This document shows, in pieces, positions 5,415 to 32,000 of a stretch of DNA of 32,000 nucleotides. The notes beneath the pieces were generated by a model, which saw only the letters and a program-made list of their open reading frames with translations, searched no databases and was not told where the DNA came from. Both the position numbers and the translations under genes were made by a program. Each line of letters starts with the position of its first letter. The stretch's first letter is position 1. The stretch is from Acaryochloris thomasi RCC1774 (GTDB lineage Bacteria > Cyanobacteriota > Cyanobacteriia > Thermosynechococcales > Thermosynechococcaceae): the NCBI RefSeq assembly GCF_003231495.1, contig NZ_PQWO01000012.1:151310-183309 (forward strand), in the 5' to 3' direction.

Positions 5415-5896
5415 GATGCTTATGAATCCTTAAGTGAATCTACTGAATTCGAACAGATTTAAGTCACTCAAAATTGTTCTGAAAATGAATTCAGAATTTA
5501 TCCCCCAAGAGTTCCCCCATGTGCTAGACCAGCTAGCACTGAACGTCATGCGTAAAACTACGCAAAATGTCAGATAACTAGTTGGAATTGTATAGTAAAA
5601 AGACTAATGTGGCATCCCCCAAACAGGTGAGATGAGATTAGTATGACCATACGTCAAAGTGCCACGTCATTGCTTAGCCTTGAGAAATGTACAAGTTTCC
5701 CACTATTGGAAGTATTTTGACGGCGATTCTTCTATCAGGCTTTGTTGACATCCCTGTCTTTCAAGCTACGGCCTCTAGGTAGTGAAAGACAGAAGATATT
5801 GCTCTATGCGTGTGCTTGCCGCTGGAGTTGCCCTGATGTGTGGACTACGATCCAACTATAATAATCTTTGTCCTATCTCATTAAGAGTCTGCAGCC

Positions 5897-8909: not shown

Positions 8910-9131
8910 TAGCTCAATCAGGGGCAGGCTAGGTAAAAGCCAACATCCTGGGCATCATCTGTTAAGCTTTATTAAAAATCAAGACGATTTACTTGTTTTT
9001 TACGTTTATGCCGCATTAGTGGAGATCAAATGATGGCTCATGCTCAACGGTAGCTCGTGCAGGGTCAGTCCAGAGCGAGTTAACCCTGGCAGGTTCTAGC
9101 GGTATTTTTCGGTTGTTGATGATGAGGTTAT

Positions 9132-9707
9132 GTGTTCATGGTTAGTGCCACTCGGCCCACTCCACTCCACACAGTCGATAGTCATTTGTCTGCGACGGAT
9201 CAAGCTTCGCTACTTAATGGTGAGATCTTGATGCAGACGCGTTCCCATAGCCTGATCGGTGCAGGGGTGACGGCTCGAATGTTCTTGCCCACGCCCCGAC
9301 CACAGGCCTGGACACAGCTCACACACTACCCTAGCTGGACTCAATTCTTTCCTGACATCAACCGCAGCGAAGTTCTGTCAACGGTTGACCGCTCGTCCTC
9401 GGTTGAGCATCGACTTCACCAGACGGCTCGGAAGGACTTTTTCCTGCTGGCGGTGCAGGTTGAAATTTATATGAAGGTTACTGAAACCCAGGATCAGCGA
9501 CTTCGCTTTCAGTTCGAACGGGGAAGCTTTAGTGATTTCTCAGCCGATTTGACGCTCCAGGACTACGGCCCCGGAACAATCTTGACCTACTCAGTAGAAG
9601 CTACACCTCTGATTCCGGTCCCGAGTCTTTTCATTCAAGAGGCCATTCGTCACGATTTGCCCAGCAACATGCGGCAGATGCGCCAGGTAATCTGTGCCGC
9701 AGGCTAA
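9132..9707 (+). CDS. SRPBCC-superfamily (cyclase/dehydrase-like) protein
   Basis: 191-aa ORF (GTG at 9132, ATG at 9138). The pattern PRPQAWTQLTHYPSWTQFFPDI and its length fit cyanobacterial SRPBCC/START-like proteins. The family assignment is by recollection only. Confidence 0.6.
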   Translation: MFMVSATRPTPLHTVDSHLSATDQASLLNGEILMQTRSHSLIGAGVTARMFLPTPRPQAWTQLTHYPSWTQFFPDINRSEVLSTVDRSSSVEHRLHQTARKDFFLLAVQVEIYMKVTETQDQRLRFQFERGSFSDFSADLTLQDYGPGTILTYSVEATPLIPVPSLFIQEAIRHDLPSNMRQMRQVICAAG

Positions 9708-25803: not shown

Positions 25804-27270
25804 ATGAACAAAAGAATTTACTATACAGCTCTCACACTTGCGATCACGGGAATCTGTACAGCTGCAACAGCTGTCGCCGCCGCAGACGAAAGTATTACCA
25901 CGACTTCTCCATCTCCTATAGATTCTTACGCCGATCAGAATCTTCAGGGAGAGATACTTGTAGCCTCTGCTCCTCTATCAGATGCTGAGACAACAGTTAC
26001 AAGCTACTCTAAGCAGCCTAAGCATTTAGAGGGACCTAATATTCCTCCCCGAGTCTTAGCTTCTCCTGATCTCCAACCTCTCGCAAGACTAGATATTGAA
26101 AAGACGCCTATTACAAATGGAGTAGTAGAAGTTTCTACGTCAAACATTGACTTCTCAGCAACGCTAACCTTCAAACCCTCTGCACAGACAATCGCTGAGA
26201 TCCAGGCACTAGAATCAAAGACATCTCACAGCTTTGACAATAGTGCATCTTTACTGGCTCTGGCTTCAGAAACTGTTGAACCAGCCAACGCAGGCATTAG
26301 GTCACAGGTAGTTGAAACACCAGAGCCTGTTGTACAGAACATCAACTTCCCAACAGCTCCAACATTCACTCCTTCCGCACAGACAATCGCTGAAATTCAA
26401 GCTCCAGAGTTAAAGACATCTCACAGCTTTGATAGCAGTGCATCTTTACTGGCTTTGGCCTCAGAAATCGTTGAAGAAACTAATACTGAGTCCGAGGTGC
26501 TGAAAGATGAAAAAACGGAAGCTGTTGTCTCAGACATTAACTTACCAATAGTTCCAACTTCCTCCGCCATGGCACAAGCCATTCCTGAATTTCAAGCACC
26601 CGCAGTTGAAGCTGACCAATCTGTTGAACATGGTGCTGCATTACTGAGACCTTTAGCACCAGGCCTTACCGCAGAACCTAAACTAGAAAATTCAGCCACC
26701 ATTCAAAGGAATAGTGTTGCAGATGCAGTAGTAGCGCCAGCGCCAAAACAAACACCTACGCTACAAAGCAATCTTGATAGGGCCCCCATAACTCCAAAGT
26801 CATCAGAAATTTTGGATAACTATGGATTAGTCAACTCTATCAAAGGCAATAAAGTCTCGGTTCGTCTCTTAAACGGAAAGAATAAAACCTACTTGCTAGC
26901 TTCTAATTCCGCAGGGAGTCAAATCAGGCGTGGCGGCTTAATGGGTTTTAACACGGATCGCCGAGGTAGAATTACGCGTCTCGCGCCTCCTAAGATCAAA
27001 AAGATTTACCAAGGCACTCTAGTTATCGTGGAAGGGACAAAAATTGGCATGGTGACACCTGAAGGAGAACGTTTTATCACAACGCTTTCGAAGAGAAAGA
27101 TTGCTCACATGGGCCTAGCGCCTGGACAGCCGATCAAGATCACTCAATACAGTGGAACTTGGGCCACAAAAGTTTGCCGTCCGGGAGTATTAAGCGATCG
27201 CCAGATTTCATCTGATGCGATGCAGAGGCAAAGAAATTTCTTGAGGGGTGAAACCTCACCAAAATCTTAA
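25804..27270 (+). CDS. Secreted repeat protein of unknown function, paralog family P
   Basis: 488 aa. Signal peptide MNKRIYYTALTLAITGICTAATAVAA. Three 65-aa repeats in the S/T/P/A/E-rich middle. The C-terminal module (nt ~26809-27192), ILDNYGLVNSIKGNKVSVRLLNG...ITQYSGTWATKVCRPG, is shared with the 24620 gene. Confidence 0.8.
   Translation: MNKRIYYTALTLAITGICTAATAVAAADESITTTSPSPIDSYADQNLQGEILVASAPLSDAETTVTSYSKQPKHLEGPNIPPRVLASPDLQPLARLDIEKTPITNGVVEVSTSNIDFSATLTFKPSAQTIAEIQALESKTSHSFDNSASLLALASETVEPANAGIRSQVVETPEPVVQNINFPTAPTFTPSAQTIAEIQAPELKTSHSFDSSASLLALASEIVEETNTESEVLKDEKTEAVVSDINLPIVPTSSAMAQAIPEFQAPAVEADQSVEHGAALLRPLAPGLTAEPKLENSATIQRNSVADAVVAPAPKQTPTLQSNLDRAPITPKSSEILDNYGLVNSIKGNKVSVRLLNGKNKTYLLASNSAGSQIRRGGLMGFNTDRRGRITRLAPPKIKKIYQGTLVIVEGTKIGMVTPEGERFITTLSKRKIAHMGLAPGQPIKITQYSGTWATKVCRPGVLSDRQISSDAMQRQRNFLRGETSPKS
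26143..26676 (+). repeat. Three tandem 195-bp (65-codon) repeats inside the 25804 gene
   Basis: Units begin at residues N114, N179 and D244. The first is NIDFSATLTFKPSAQTIAEIQALESKTSHSFDNSASLLALASETVE. The second is NINFPTAPTFTPSAQTIAEIQAPELKTSHSFDSSASLLALASEIVE. The third is degenerate: DINLPIVPTSSAMAQAIPEFQAPAVEADQSVEHGAALLRPLA. Confidence 0.75.
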
Positions 27271-27739
27271 GAAATAAAGACCTTAGAGGACGCTCAGAAA
27301 ATCAGCCTAGGAAGTCGGAAAGGCTTTCTAGGCTGACCTATTAAAGAGCAGCAGAGAATCTTTTCTATCACCTCTTTTGATCTTTCAATAGCTAAGTGGC
27401 CCTAGAGATAAAAAACAGCAAAATAACGGCAAAAAGTTTATTTAGGATACAGAATTACCTGATCTTCACCGATGCAGATAAAACAGTAGATCAAGGCTGG
27501 CTAAAAAAGAATGCCTGAGTTGAATTAATCTCCTGAAGCCGGCTCAGATCGCTCTATAGACTTGATATTTCGTCGTTGGTCGATAATCTCTGTAAGTATA
27601 GAAATGACAAAAAAATAATTATAGACACGAAAAAAGCCTGCGCAGACAAGATTTTTACTGTTCTGAAAATCAAGAAAACTTAAGTAAATAGGCCAAGGAA
27701 AGGAAATTCGTATCTTCTTTCTGTATTAATTAACTTGTC

Positions 27740-28141
27740 TTACTTCCCCTCGTATTCAAAGGATTTAATAACGGTAAAATCGTAGGTTACTTTTCCCTTT
27801 GGCAAATCATACTGAAAATCTGAATAGATTTCATTGTAAGCCGCAGCGTACTGTGGCAAAAACAAGTAGTGATAGAATCCTTGGGGAGGGAAGAAACTAG
27901 AGCCAAATCCATTGAGGCCAAACCCAAACCCTCCGGCAGCAAATACATTTCCGGAAAATCCACCCGCTGTAAATGCATTACCGGAAAATCCACCTACAGA
28001 ATTTGCAGGTAGGAAAAATGCCTCGGCAGGCGTTGCCTGAGGAGAAGTAGACTGACCAAAGATAATTTGCGCGTTGGCCCCATTTGTAAACGATGCCAAG
28101 GCCACCGATAGAGTTGTTAACGCAAGTACAGGAACTTTCAT
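27740..28141 (-). CDS. Secreted Gly/Phe-repeat protein (hypothetical)
   Basis: 133 aa. Signal peptide MKVPVLALTTLSVALASFTNGANA. Decapeptide repeats GGFSGNAFTA / GGFSGNVFAA / GGFGFGLNGF (nt ~27902-27994). Aromatic-rich C-terminal part ending VTYDFTVIKSFEYEGK. Confidence 0.65.
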   Translation of the reverse strand: MKVPVLALTTLSVALASFTNGANAQIIFGQSTSPQATPAEAFFLPANSVGGFSGNAFTAGGFSGNVFAAGGFGFGLNGFGSSFFPPQGFYHYLFLPQYAAAYNEIYSDFQYDLPKGKVTYDFTVIKSFEYEGK

Positions 28142-28385
28142 GGGACAAGCCTCACAGCAGAACAGATAGAATAAAGGGCAGAATTATCTTTTCGTTTAGT
28201 AGCTTAATTTATGTAAAAAAGATATAAAGAACATGAAATAATGCCTTTGAGAAGCTGCATCCCTCCCACAAGATATAGCTCCTTTAAAGATATTTGGGCC
28301 ATCTGTGCTTTTCGTCTACTACAACCACGACTGGCACATTGATCAATGTATTCCCAAAGAAAACTACTCAGCGATTGAGCCGAGC

Positions 28386-28832
28386 CTATCTGCCTCGCGG
28401 TCCTACCTGTGGCTCTGGACTACTCCGTCGAGGTCCGCGATCTCCACTGGCACCCGTTGTGACATTGGTTGTATGCACAAAATCAGCATAATCAAAAGAT
28501 TCACTGAATTCGTAGACGGTGGTTGTTAGCCTTTCTCCACGCTCTCTCGTTATAGAGGTATTTATAGTGCCGTTATCAGAAACGGTTGTAGTTGTGGCAC
28601 CATTGGCCCGATTAGAGGTATGACTGGAGTCACGTTGAGAATCAGTGGTGATAGAGAAGCCATTTTCACTCGTTTGTTCCCTTGTCACAACACGGTTGTT
28701 ACGCTCTGCATGCCCCTGTGGGCTGACAACGAAGTTCATCACAGTTGTGCCAGAAGCATTCTGTGCCAGGCTTGGCAATACAAATGTCAAGAGCCAAAAA
28801 GGTGAAAGCACAAGAACATATTTGGGTTTCAT
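28386..28832 (-). CDS. Secreted Thr/Ser/Asn-rich protein, distant member of the GFDF family
   Basis: The ATG at 28832 gives the signal peptide MKPKYVLVLSPFWLLTFVLPSLA; the ORF track starts 18 codons earlier. The segment RERGERLTTTVYEFSESFDYADFVHTTNVTTG aligns by eye with REQGTVLKNTTVRVQESYEFTGFQESHRVTAG of the 29852 gene. Confidence 0.6.
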   Translation of the reverse strand: MKPKYVLVLSPFWLLTFVLPSLAQNASGTTVMNFVVSPQGHAERNNRVVTREQTSENGFSITTDSQRDSSHTSNRANGATTTTVSDNGTINTSITRERGERLTTTVYEFSESFDYADFVHTTNVTTGASGDRGPRRSSPEPQVGPRGR

Positions 28833-28949
28833 ACTAACAATTCTCGCTTTTCGACAGGGTAGGCAGCTACCATTTATAACCATCATCTCTATTCAAGAGT
28901 AAAGAAACATCCCTAACGACAGCTCAACTTAAGCCAAGGATGATTCAGA

Positions 28950-29783
28950 CTACTGCCGTGCTTGAACACTTGATTCCTGAGTGCTAGCCGTTGCGGGTCG
29001 CTGCAGCTGTGCCGGCTGAACTGGTCGCTGCGGCTGAGGTACGGCCTGCTGTTGAACAGGTTGAATGGGCTGGCCTGACTGCTGCTGTACAAAATTTTGA
29101 TTCGTAGCAGACGGCTCATTGATAAGCTGCTCAGCTTGCTGTCGGGAGACGGGCTGGACTTGTTGCTGGCCCGCTTGCTGCTGTCGAGAAACAGGTTGCG
29201 CTTGCTGTTGACCCAGTTGTGGCTGACGGCCTCGGGCATTACGATTATTCTGCTGTGGCGCAGCACCAAATGGGCTGGCACCAGGCTGCGGAACGGTGAC
29301 AGTTGGGCACTCAAGGCCAGCAAGCTGATTAAGATCTTCGTAGCTAATCTTGATTCCAGATTTAATCATTTTGGAATAGTTACTAATGACTAGCAAACAA
29401 GTTTCCAAAGACGCTCTGGCTAATTGTGTCTTTGCATATGCTCGGCAGGTATCTACACCAAATGACTTGGTATAGGTAAATGAGCCACCAATAGAACCTG
29501 TATCGAAGGGACCGATTCCATTACCAAAAGCAGATAGCGCAATACCAGAGCTGGAGCAGTCAGCGATACCATTACCAACAACACTTCTGCCTAGAGGGAA
29601 TGAATTCACTTGTGTATTAACAAGCGATCCCTGCTGGTTTAGATCAACGACAGGATTCGCCGTTGAGTTTGCATTGTTGGGAGCATCAATATTGTTTGTG
29701 GTAGCCTGTGCAGACACTTTCCCTGCAGTACACAATAGCAAGCCAACAACTGAAGCACCCGCCATTAAATGACGATAATTCAT
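28950..29783 (-). CDS. Secreted 4-Cys protein with Q/P-rich C-terminal tail (hypothetical)
   Basis: 277 aa. Signal peptide MNYRHLMAGASVVGLLLCTAGKVSA. The mature N-domain is G/S/N-rich with Cys76, Cys113, Cys129 and Cys159. The tail from residue ~165 (nt 28953-29291) is about one third Gln (36 of ~113 by my count). Confidence 0.7.
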   Translation of the reverse strand: MNYRHLMAGASVVGLLLCTAGKVSAQATTNNIDAPNNANSTANPVVDLNQQGSLVNTQVNSFPLGRSVVGNGIADCSSSGIALSAFGNGIGPFDTGSIGGSFTYTKSFGVDTCRAYAKTQLARASLETCLLVISNYSKMIKSGIKISYEDLNQLAGLECPTVTVPQPGASPFGAAPQQNNRNARGRQPQLGQQQAQPVSRQQQAGQQQVQPVSRQQAEQLINEPSATNQNFVQQQSGQPIQPVQQQAVPQPQRPVQPAQLQRPATASTQESSVQARQ

Positions 29784-29851: not shown

Positions 29852-30259
29852 TTAAAAGTCAAACCCGGCTGTAACTCTGTGACTTTCCTGGAAACCAGTA
29901 AACTCATAAGACTCCTGTACACGAACCGTTGTGTTCTTAAGTACAGTGCCTTGCTCCCTGGAATAACTTCTGGATGTAACGTCAAAGTAGGTGTCTTCTT
30001 GGACGTTGCGGCCATCTTCGACGTAGGTAATTGAAGTTTTACCTCGCTCACGCTTTACCGCAAAGGCATCAGCTTCGCGCTCGCCATTATAAACTTCTCT
30101 AACATTGAGCCTAGTTTCTGCCTTGCCATTTGTGATGACCCGCCGACTTTGGCTATTCCCAACATAAGCACTGCCTGCTATTGCTGGCAGTGAAGCTACA
30201 AGCCAAGAGAAACAGATAAGAGGGAGGAATCTACGGCATTTCATTTTAAACACCATCAA
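29852..30259 (-). CDS. Secreted small beta-rich protein, GFDF family (divergent copy)
   Basis: 135 aa; the likely start is the MKCRRF ATG at 30244. Signal peptide ...WLVASLPAIAGSAYVGNS. The C-terminus ESYEFTGFQESHRVTAGFDF matches the two copies downstream in coordinates. Confidence 0.7.
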   Translation of the reverse strand: MMVFKMKCRRFLPLICFSWLVASLPAIAGSAYVGNSQSRRVITNGKAETRLNVREVYNGEREADAFAVKRERGKTSITYVEDGRNVQEDTYFDVTSRSYSREQGTVLKNTTVRVQESYEFTGFQESHRVTAGFDF

Positions 30260-30389
30260 GTTATCAAAACCATCGGGGTGTCACTAAAATGCAATCTAGT
30301 TTGCAAGAATTTACCCCGTACGACTTGTAGGTTAAGCCTCACTGCTCTCAAAGCAAAAAGGCTTAACCCATGAGAGAGAAATACGAAAA

Positions 30390-30815
30390 CTAGAAGTCGA
30401 AACCAGAAGTCACGCGGTGAGTCTTGTCGAAGCCAGAGAAGTCGTAGGACTCATGGACTGCAACATCAGTTGTATTTTTGAAACGACCGTGCTCACTAGA
30501 CCAGCTGCTAACACTAATATCAGCGACATCAACTTCTGAGAAATTAGTCTCACGCCAAGAGCCAGCAACATCACCCTTCTCAGTGTAATCAGTTGTTGTT
30601 ACGCTCCACTCATTCTTCACCGCATCGGAGCCGGCTGAACGAGTCCCTTTATAGACCTCATGCACCTTAACCTTAGTATCTGAATGGCCGTTGTAAGTAT
30701 TCTTTAGGTTGAAGCTGTTCTCAACGTAGGAACTTCCAGCCAAGGAAGGAAGAGCTGCAAAACCTACGAGAATTGCAGAAAGAGGAAGAACTCTTTGAAG
30801 TTTCATAATATTCAC
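30390..30815 (-). CDS. Secreted small beta-rich protein, GFDF family (cassette copy 1)
   Basis: 141 aa. Signal peptide MNIMKLQRVLPLSAILVGFAALPSLAG. About 82% identical (25 mismatches of 141 by my count) to the 31043 copy. Ends FSGFDKTHRVTSGFDF. Confidence 0.8.
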   Translation of the reverse strand: MNIMKLQRVLPLSAILVGFAALPSLAGSSYVENSFNLKNTYNGHSDTKVKVHEVYKGTRSAGSDAVKNEWSVTTTDYTEKGDVAGSWRETNFSEVDVADISVSSWSSEHGRFKNTTDVAVHESYDFSGFDKTHRVTSGFDF

Positions 30816-31042
30816 TACTGAATAACTGCTTTAGAAAATAGAGAAGGGCACGTCGCCTTCACATACACTGATAAACTCAACAGATCTTGACCTGAGCAAT
30901 ATAAGGAATCGCTTTAAATCGGGATTAACCTCAATAGGTAGTTGCAGAAACACTACAGAATCAAGACAATGAACGTCTTAAACTTTTGCTACCTGTTCAA
31001 AACTATCCCGGTATTGCTCAGGCGATATGACTAAAGAATTGC

Positions 31043-31468
31043 TTAGAAGTCGAAGCCAGAAGTCACGCGGTGAGTCTTGTCGAAGCCAGAGAATTGGTAG
31101 GACTCATCCACTGCAACTTTTGTTGAATTAATGAATGCACCGCTTTCCTCGGACCAGCTGCTAACGCTAATATCAGCGACATCAACTTCTGAGAAATTAG
31201 TCTCACGCCAAGAGCCAGCAACATCGCCCTTCTCGTTGTAATCAGTTTTTGTAATACTGTATTCATCCTTGGTCGCATCAGAACCAGCAGAACGAGTACC
31301 CAGATAAAGCTGATTGACATCAACATCAGTTTTAGAATAGCCGTTGTAAGTATTCTTTAGATTGAAGCTGTTCTCAACGTAGGAACTTCCAGCCAAAGAA
31401 GGAAGAGCTGCGAAGCCAACGAGAATTGCAGAAAGAGGAAGAATTCTTTGAATTTTCATGATACTCAC
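31043..31468 (-). CDS. Secreted small beta-rich protein, GFDF family (cassette copy 2)
   Basis: 141 aa. Signal peptide MSIMKIQRILPLSAILVGFAALPSLAG. Same architecture and identical C-terminal 16 aa as copy 1. Confidence 0.8.
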   Translation of the reverse strand: MSIMKIQRILPLSAILVGFAALPSLAGSSYVENSFNLKNTYNGYSKTDVDVNQLYLGTRSAGSDATKDEYSITKTDYNEKGDVAGSWRETNFSEVDVADISVSSWSEESGAFINSTKVAVDESYQFSGFDKTHRVTSGFDF

Positions 31469-31698
31469 TACTAAATGATTGCTAGAGAAAATAGAGCAGG
31501 AAGAAATCTTCCCCTCGAAAATATGGCTAAATCTACAGATTTCAACCTGAGCAATACAAGGAATCGCTTTAAATCAGGATTAGCCTCAATAGGTAGGTAC
31601 AAATAGCACTACAGAGTCAAGGCAATGAGCGCCTTAAACTTTCGCTATCAGTTCAAAACTATCCCGGTATTGTTCAGGCGATATGACTAAAGAATCGC

Positions 31699-31828
31699 TT
31701 AGAAGTCGAAGCCAGAAGTCACGCGGTGAGTCTTGTCGAAGCCAGAGAATTGGTAGGACTCATCCACTGCAACTGTTGTTGAATTATCGAATGAACCGCT
31801 CTCTTTAGACCAGCTGCTAACGCTAATA
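31699..31828 (-). pseudogene. 3' fragment of a third GFDF-family cassette copy
   Basis: Encodes only ...ISVSSWSKESGSFDNSTTVAVDESYQFSGFDKTHRVTSGFDF plus a stop. Homology to copy 2 ends abruptly after 31828. An in-frame TAG lies just upstream, and there is no start codon or signal peptide. Confidence 0.75.
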
Positions 31829-31833
31829 AGTAG

Positions 31834-32000
31834 CTAGGCGGAATTAAACTTAAGACGGTGTACCTTGTATTTGCCCTTTTCACCTCGAGCGGTCATCCCT
31901 TCGATGACGGCAATCGCTAAATCGTACTCATTGCTAAACATCTGCCCCGCTATTTCGTGAGCCTTAAGTTGCCGCCACTGGGTCTCAATGTCATTCAACT
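31834..32000 (-). CDS. 3' end of an unidentified gene running off the window
   Basis: Open frame to the window edge. It encodes ...LNDIETQWRQLKAHEIAGQMFSNEYDLAIAVIEGMTARGEKGKYKVHRLKFNSA with a TAG stop at 31834-31836. It is absent from the ORF track because it is under 60 codons. Family not recognised. Confidence 0.45.
   Translation of the reverse strand, partial: LNDIETQWRQLKAHEIAGQMFSNEYDLAIAVIEGMTARGEKGKYKVHRLKFNSA

Follow-up and report, generated by a model that had tools for sequence, protein, structure and literature searches.

Layout of the paralogue array

The stretch of DNA analysed here, a window of 32,000 nucleotides on contig NZ_PQWO01000012.1 of the cyanobacterium Acaryochloris thomasi RCC1774, carries on its minus strand a head-to-tail array of three gene-plus-spacer units of about 655 bp that encode small exported proteins. 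The minus-strand stop codons TAG at 30390-30392, TAA at 31043-31045 and TAA at 31699-31701 delimit units of 653 and 656 bp. These are the units that an original prediction, made by a model from the letters alone, had proposed for this region, and they were recovered by reading the stops, by a repeat search and by alignment. The periodicity that the prediction suggested looking for in a self-alignment was found as direct repeats spaced 653, 655 and 656 bp from start to start. In detail, the repeat search paired 30391-30690 with 31044-31343 at 81% identity, 30874-30946 with 31529-31601 at 86%, and 30951-31172 with 31607-31828 at 92% over 222 nt, the last pair belonging to units 2 and 3. Aligned globally, units 1 and 2 were 84% identical in their coding sequences (359/426 positions, counted from a GTG) and 82% in their spacers, which is far above chance. 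Tandem Repeats Finder (TRF) made no call for the array only because its maximum period is 500.

Several details of the predicted unit changed on closer reading. The genes had been given as 141 codons long, which is the length of the open reading frame (ORF) from the GTG; the start conserved in the family is an ATG three codons downstream (MKLQ...), leading to proteins of 138 amino acids. This ATG is common to 20/20 database homologues and to the GenBank annotation (C1752_04109, C1752_04110). The conserved spacer was indeed duplicated along with the gene, but its lengths are 236 and 239 bp and not about 228 bp. Likewise, the stop codon of copy 1, taken as the left boundary of the array, is the edge of the high-identity part, but the family continues beyond it with a diverged paralogue (div, 29852-30244) and a remote member (28386-28886). 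The remote member matched the array family with an hhalign probability of 98.9% (E = 1.3e-17). Along the direction of transcription, the order of genes is copy 3 (split by an insertion sequence, IS), copy 2, copy 1, div, an unrelated Gln-rich secreted protein and the remote paralogue.

Table 1. Features of the array and its surroundings, with coordinates in the window
Feature	Coordinates	Strand	Description
Remote family member	28386..28886	-	ORF of 166 aa; likely start MKPKYVL at ~28832, giving ~148 aa
Diverged paralogue div	29852..30244	-	130 aa; 42% identical to copy 1
Copy 1-to-div spacer	30245..30389	-	Non-homologous to spacers 1 and 2
Copy 1 (b-type)	30390..30806	-	138 aa plus TAG; C1752_04109 (P0001), 100% match
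Spacer 1, copy 2 stop to copy 1 ATG	30807..31042	-	236 nt; 82% identical to spacer 2
Terminator-like hairpin, spacer 1	30843..30860	-	GAAGGCGACGTGCCCTTC then TCTATTTTCT; 37-54 nt upstream of copy 1 ATG
Inverted repeat/long stem-loop, spacer 1	30891..31022	-	~132 nt; arms CCTGAGCAATA and TATTGCTCAGG
Copy 2 (a-type with b-like or converted segments)	31043..31459	-	138 aa plus TAA; C1752_04110 (P0004)
Spacer 2, copy 3 stop to copy 2 ATG	31460..31698	-	239 nt
Terminator-like hairpin, spacer 2	31498..31513	-	Hairpin plus T-run
Copy 3, 3' fragment	31699..31828	-	130 nt: last 42 codons plus TAA; 94% nucleotide identity to copy 2
End of IS630-family element	31829..32000	-	Transposase C-terminus ORF 31834-32000, running off the window; inserted at TA 31827-31828

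The similarity between units ends at 31828, which is not an edge of the array. Between 31828 and 31829, copy 3 is interrupted by an IS630-family element: it tracks copy 2 up to ...GCTAACGCTAATA, and AGTAGCTAGGCGG... follows directly after the TA. A tblastn search with the transposase C-terminus (54 aa) gave 55-66% identity to cyanobacterial plasmid loci in 32 plasmid records, and several of these loci carry the annotation IS630 family transposase; the same piece had no Pfam or PHROGs match, being a very short query. The likeness to IS630/Tc1-mariner elements consists of this identity and of the TA adjoining the insertion, and concerns the array-side 172 nt, so that TA and element end are seen on one side of the insertion. 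These 172 nt are the IS portion within the window, and the far end of the element and its inverted repeats lie outside it.

The missing part of copy 3 is most likely P0010 (C1752_06116), a protein of 97 aa on another RCC1774 contig in which the first 96 residues of a family member are succeeded by K and the stop codon (...VADK). This ending would be accounted for as GAT-A|AG-TAG, if the same IS end AGTAG... adjoins the far side of the TA. Joined to the copy 3 fragment, P0010 yields 138 aa, with 123/138 residues (89%) shared with copy 2. The draft assembly probably breaks inside the IS element, hence the place of C1752_06116 on another contig. From these sequences, the array appears to end on the right where an IS630-type element went into a third copy that is intact apart from this insertion. 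The element would have entered copy 3 recently, because both halves remain open.

To place the array among its relatives, it was compared with 12 related loci (L001-L012, with the overlapping contigs L009 and L010 counted separately). The closest relative, L001, is a metagenome-assembled genome (MAG) with two similar copies at a period of 652 bp, followed by div and by the downstream genes of the window in unchanged order. Two similar copies plus div were found as well in L002 (periods 663 and 577 bp) and L003 (673 and 572 bp), three plus div in L012 (697, 704 and 575 bp), and one plus div in L009/L010 (638 bp), and L011 has four family genes (x, a, b, c). Single copies are present in A. marina MBIC11017 (AM1_4602), Lyngbya confervoides and three MAGs. 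The window, with three similar copies, equals L012. The expected copy-number variation is therefore seen among the relatives, from 1 to 4 non-divergent copies per locus. A metagenome scan found no relatives.

The paralogue div is orthologous and in the same position in six relatives (L001, L002, L003, L009/L010 and L012), and weak tblastn matches at the position of the remote paralogue were obtained in L001, L005, L008, L011 and L012. The diverged paralogues group as a single clade in a neighbour-joining tree, which indicates that the div duplication is old. The similar copies, on the other hand, cluster by genome.

Divergence of the copies and exchange between them

Regarding the similar copies themselves, amino acid differences range from 11 to 17%. 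Copies 1 and 2 differ in 17% of their residues and have a synonymous divergence (dS) of 0.38 overall. This divergence is unevenly distributed: codons 1-40, 78-103 and 121-138 have a dS of 0.09-0.23, and codons 41-77 and 104-120, the two variable segments in which residue replacements are concentrated as well, one of 0.6-1.0. The low-dS tracts do not reflect nucleotide-level constraint, because the corresponding a-b pair of L001 has a dS of at least 0.75 in every segment. Copies 1 and 2 share identical runs of up to 59 nt (P = 0.0014 for the longest if mismatches are uniformly scattered). Overall ratios of non-synonymous to synonymous divergence (dN/dS) of 0.12-0.33 indicate that all copies are under purifying selection. 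The TAG stop is common to copy 1 and L001_b, and TAA to copies 2, 3 and L001_a. The copy 3 fragment comes closest to copy 2, with 94% identity, ahead of L001_a (86%), copy 1 (84%) and L001_b (73%).

The low-dS tracts are best explained by putative gene conversion within this genome, or by a chimeric product of crossing-over. Gene conversion between copies 1 and 2, which the original prediction had said such an array would allow, is well supported, as the mosaic synonymous divergence of the two fits it. The simplest history would begin with an a-b-div array in the ancestor of the window genome and L001. Unequal homologous exchange in the window lineage would then have generated a third cassette of a-type, copies 3 and 2 both being a-type. 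Such an exchange between misaligned copies is expected to duplicate the single a-b spacer, as is observed. Later conversion tracts would have homogenised codons 1-40, 78-103 and 121-138 together with the first ~160 nt of the spacer, while codons 41-77 and 104-120 stayed distinct. The features of array turnover are found together at this locus, namely homologous units of constant period (copies 1 and 2 intact), copy-number differences at the orthologous locus and signs of exchange between copies. Judging by their sequences, the copies are diverged isoforms and not dosage replicas.

Could the array be an artefact of short-read assembly, through expansion, collapse or chimerism? The draft was built at 20x from MiSeq data with 160-bp paired reads and comprises 72 contigs (PMC6002478), and the array adjoins a multicopy IS, a likely place for an assembly break. 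However, exact matches between units extend to at most 59 nt (1/2), 76 nt (2/3) and 38 nt (1/3), all shorter than a 160-bp read, and every copy has an open frame with dN/dS below 1. Moreover, the independent L001 assembly has the a-b-div layout with its 652-bp period, and four further assemblies have comparable arrays. The units differing from each other, their open frames and the like layout in independent assemblies largely refute an artefact, which we consider extremely unlikely; the form of it that is left, a collapse of extra near-identical copies, is one on which read depth would decide.

A recent adaptive amplification for dosage, with near-identical cassettes each bringing its own promoter, was implied by the original prediction and has some appeal. 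The spacer is duplicated with the gene, copies 2 and 3 resemble each other fairly closely (92% over 222 nt, 89% of residues), and there is a cyanobacterial precedent in Anabaena sp. 90, with its seven gvpA genes in tandem (PMC3542288). Yet the divergence of copies 1 and 2 reaches a dS of about 1.0 in the unconverted segments, the duplication into a and b is older than the separation from the L001 lineage, and the 11-17% of residue differences are concentrated in two segments, as expected of isoforms. Promoter-like matches, in addition, are no commoner than in shuffled sequences (4 vs 3.0 +/- 1.9). A dosage origin is therefore quite improbable. Tandem amplification is an apt term in so far as the cassettes are genuinely head-to-tail, but the event is not fresh, given the overall dS of 0.38 and the two-copy state already present in L001. 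As a whole, the general mechanism first proposed is right, and the array is older and larger than described.

The nearest parallel to the array is with tandem paralogue families shaped by unequal crossing-over and gene conversion (birth-and-death or concerted evolution), of which gvpA is a cyanobacterial example. Both have head-to-tail gene-plus-spacer units, copy-number differences, a within-genome similarity above that of orthologues, and mosaic divergence. In contrast to GvpA, the RCC1774 proteins, which are unrelated to it and have no Pfam match, are exported and not cytoplasmic, and their copies are diverged isoforms (83-89% of residues) instead of near-identical ones.

Spacer structures and expression signals

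The duplicated unit had been thought to include the regulatory region. This was not supported, as sigma-70 promoter-like matches stand at background in the window and none was found in L002; the spacer has RNA-structure-like elements instead. Along the alignment of spacers 1 and 2, identity is 92% in the first 60 columns, 86% in the next 100, 59% in a stretch of 45 columns and 81% in the ATG-proximal part. Compared with the orthologous spacer of L001, the divergence K is ~0.5 (~0.56 in the case of spacer 1). As this is slightly below the synonymous rate of 0.63-0.80 in the orthologous genes, most of the spacer seems to evolve near neutrality, with conserved islands.

These islands are the two arms of an imperfect inverted repeat of ~132 nt, CCTGAGCAATAC...GTATTGCTCAGG, present in both window spacers and in L001. 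In spacer 1, the repeat search detected 11 nt of 100% complementarity, and the minimum free energy is -60.6 kcal/mol (z = -2.6); in spacer 2, the arms lie at 31546-31562 and 31662-31678. The two spacer folds have z-scores of -2.6 and -1.7, and the stem is retained in a consensus fold of the three sequences.

A second element, a terminator-like hairpin with a T-run, sits in the poorly conserved stretch of 45 columns, at an equal position in both spacers and with unrelated stems. Among the upstream regions of the family, 5/26 have a terminator-like site at -59 to -32, vs 0.85 +/- 0.9 in shuffles, and all five belong to internal copies (window c1 and c2, L002_b, L003_b and L012_b). Closer to the gene, a GTCATTCAGTGGTGA ribosome-binding motif precedes most start codons of the family. 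Rfam, searched at a permissive E-value, gave no match to the spacers in the window region or to the leaders of four related loci; the sole match was a chance-level snoRNA inside the coding sequence of copy 2, at 18 bits against a gathering threshold of 45. From these predicted elements, we conclude that the cassette would carry RNA structures and a translation-initiation region along with the gene.

Two other candidates in the spacers were rejected. A small ORF of 40-43 codons on the minus strand of both spacers starts with GTG or TTG, loses its frame by a 1-nt indel and is closed by a stop in L001. An origin of the spacer from the 5' leader of the first gene, or of the leader as the relic of a dead copy, was discarded as well, the alignments beating shuffles only at the ~15-20 nt around the GTCATTCAGTGGTGA motif.

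The spacer elements may act between cistrons, by partial termination or as 3'-end or processing structures that would set the relative output of each copy. Between the hairpin and the ATG the distance is too short for a promoter, which would favour read-through with attenuation or processing between the copies. Alternatively, each cassette could be an independent transcription unit, whose spacer combines the terminator of the upstream gene with a non-consensus promoter. The terminator-like hairpins in the spacers, the strong hairpins after stop codons in relatives and the spacer blocks conserved between the window and L001 would all suit such units. The distance from the hairpin to the next ATG, though, is only about 27-37 nt and no promoter fits in between, no conserved -35/-10 pair is found upstream of the hairpin, and a spacer K near the synonymous rate implies little overall constraint. 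Independent units are hence somewhat unlikely. The ~132-nt inverted repeat could also be the remnant of a miniature inverted-repeat transposable element (MITE) and not a functional RNA structure, since arms of 11-18 nt flanking about 100-110 nt are typical of MITEs in size and shape. Against this, no further copy occurs in the 32-kb window with 3 mismatches allowed, a target-site duplication is not evident, and the repeat occupies the orthologous position in the a-b spacer of L001, where some of the changes are partly compensating. A mobile origin of the stem is thus very doubtful, and intercistronic RNA elements are the preferred reading of the spacers.

Some related structures were observed outside of the two spacers. 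The spacer between copy 1 and div contains a strong hairpin at 30330-30369 (fold z = -3.6). GC-rich hairpins likewise lie ~20-70 nt past the stop of the last similar copy, before div, in L003 (10437-10470), L012 (2011-2032) and L009 (6505-6536). Their sequences are unrelated between genera; they resemble 3'-end or terminator structures, most without a T-run. In four relatives, a strongly conserved non-coding block is found ~330-200 nt upstream of the first array gene (L001 ~160-300, L002 ~2400-2540, L003 ~9030-9170, L009 ~5700-5840). It reads ..GTTGAC..(17)..CAAGATGAGCA..GCGGGGTT..GTTGCGGGGATAG and is followed by hairpins whose stem sequence differs between the genomes. The block of the four relatives had no Rfam match and the promoter scan made no call in it; its equivalent in the window genome is on the far side of the IS.

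The protein family and its neighbours

The genes had been described as coding for secreted proteins, and a Sec-type signal was indeed found in all members: a positively charged start, a hydrophobic core of ~16 residues and ...LAG|SS. The mature part of ~113 residues is Thr/Ser-rich, with conserved Gly turns and a nearly invariant C-terminus, ...ESYDFSGFDK.HRVTSGF.F. Neither the array proteins nor the neighbours in the cluster had a match in Pfam, NCBIfam, PHROGs or PDB sequences. The family is narrow, as an exhaustive profile search of 1.84 billion representatives gave 32 clusters at 50% identity, with members of 88-182 aa save three large repeat proteins. Every member with a named source is cyanobacterial, and by these searches the family appears restricted to few cyanobacterial lineages.

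Structure prediction was carried out in two AlphaFold2 runs, which gave a predicted local distance difference test score (pLDDT) of 68 and 63, a predicted template modelling score (pTM) of 0.27 and 0.30, and one very long two-stranded beta-hairpin. With these models, Foldseek returned only matches to the long-hairpin subunits of oligomeric barrels, i.e. lysenin, aerolysin and podovirus collar/tail proteins, at template modelling (TM) scores of 0.2-0.5. The proteins fall into length classes of 130, 138 and 143 aa, with 151-154 aa in distant relatives, which differ by one indel site (A1 columns ~72-95). Length variation at the predicted tip of the hairpin fits the long-hairpin topology. Altogether, the proteins can be described as exported, predicted all-beta and probably oligomeric. 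That they could be subunits of a cell-envelope or extracellular beta-structure, present in several isoforms, is weakly supported.

The resemblance to long-hairpin proteins is one of shape, and not of membership. The stems of lysenin and aerolysin and the podovirus collar/tail-knob proteins share the long two-stranded hairpin, as predicted by a low-confidence model, at TM 0.2-0.5 and 8-16% identity. In the case of the aerolysin/ETX-MTX2/lysenin toxins, Foldseek TM is ~0.2 and covers the hairpin only, there was no Pfam or PDB sequence match, and the RCC1774 proteins are 2-5 times smaller than aerolysin-type toxins and have none of the toxins' other domains. As for outer-membrane barrels, the terminal F/Y is nearly invariant, but the glycine spacing is, in our reading, unlike a textbook beta-signal and no barrel was predicted. 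The four adjacent, co-transcribed ebfG1-4 genes of Synechococcus elongatus encode small secreted proteins needed for biofilm formation (PMC4997328). EbfG1-4 are partly redundant and, like the array proteins, adjacent, small, secreted and restricted to a cyanobacterial lineage. They differ by a double-glycine leader that is cut by a C39 peptidase transporter, whereas the RCC1774 proteins have a Sec-type core and the neighbours scanned included no such transporter; this is a functional analogy and no homology is claimed.

Downstream of the array, at 25804-29783, follows a run of genes for secreted proteins that matched nothing in Pfam, NCBIfam or PHROGs; in L001 they come after the array in the same order. 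It includes a 488-aa protein with two internal repeats of ~70 aa and a conserved C-terminal domain, a Gly/Phe-rich protein of 133 aa with GGFSGN repeats at 27926-27985, the remote paralogue, and a protein of 277 aa whose tail is repetitive and rich in Gln/Pro (DNA repeats at 28998-29219). The 277-aa Gln-rich and the 133-aa Gly/Phe-rich proteins were tested as members of the array family and are unrelated. The G+C content at 25-32 kb is 0.41-0.48, lower than the 0.48-0.55 at 6-21 kb. This cluster of unannotated secreted proteins is conserved in Acaryochloris and related cyanobacteria. A more far-reaching idea would be that the array and its downstream partners (div, the Gln-rich secreted protein, the remote paralogue and the Gly/Phe-rich secreted protein) form an unrecognised module that builds an extracellular or outer-membrane barrel or fibre, with the paralogues as exchangeable subunits and the RNA elements setting their stoichiometry. 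We regard this as unlikely.

Bringing these observations together, we consider it very probable that the locus is a minus-strand paralogue array of a lineage-restricted family, with a third copy split by an IS, shaped by unequal exchange and conversion, and with RNA elements between its cistrons. Several points weigh against parts of this explanation. The 5' part of copy 3 and the sequence upstream of it lie outside the window. Concerning exchange between copies, the boundaries of the dS segments were picked after viewing the data, and a runs test on the four-sequence alignment (14 informative sites supporting grouping by position, 11 by genome and 6 other) was not significant for by-genome vs by-position sites (P = 0.37); a chimera generated by crossing-over, with fewer conversion events, is an alternative here. 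Regarding expression, the terminator-like hairpin is absent upstream of L001_b, and the copies may be preceded individually by promoters of a type that a sigma-70 consensus scan misses. Lastly, the idea of structural subunits is built on models with low pLDDT (63-68) and pTM (0.27-0.30).

Arrays of tandem paralogues in which copies come and go and segments are exchanged are well known, and the array is an ordinary kind of genome feature, an old and diverged paralogue family that has been cut by a mobile element. Within it, copy 3 shows cleanly and on a small scale how an IS630 insertion splits a member of an array. The sole novelty is that the family and its gene cluster are uncharacterised. 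A description of a small family with no Pfam or NCBIfam model, together with its isoform diversification, is of modest value. If the proteins truly are subunits of the envelope or matrix, the locus would be an entry point to the cell surface of these organisms.

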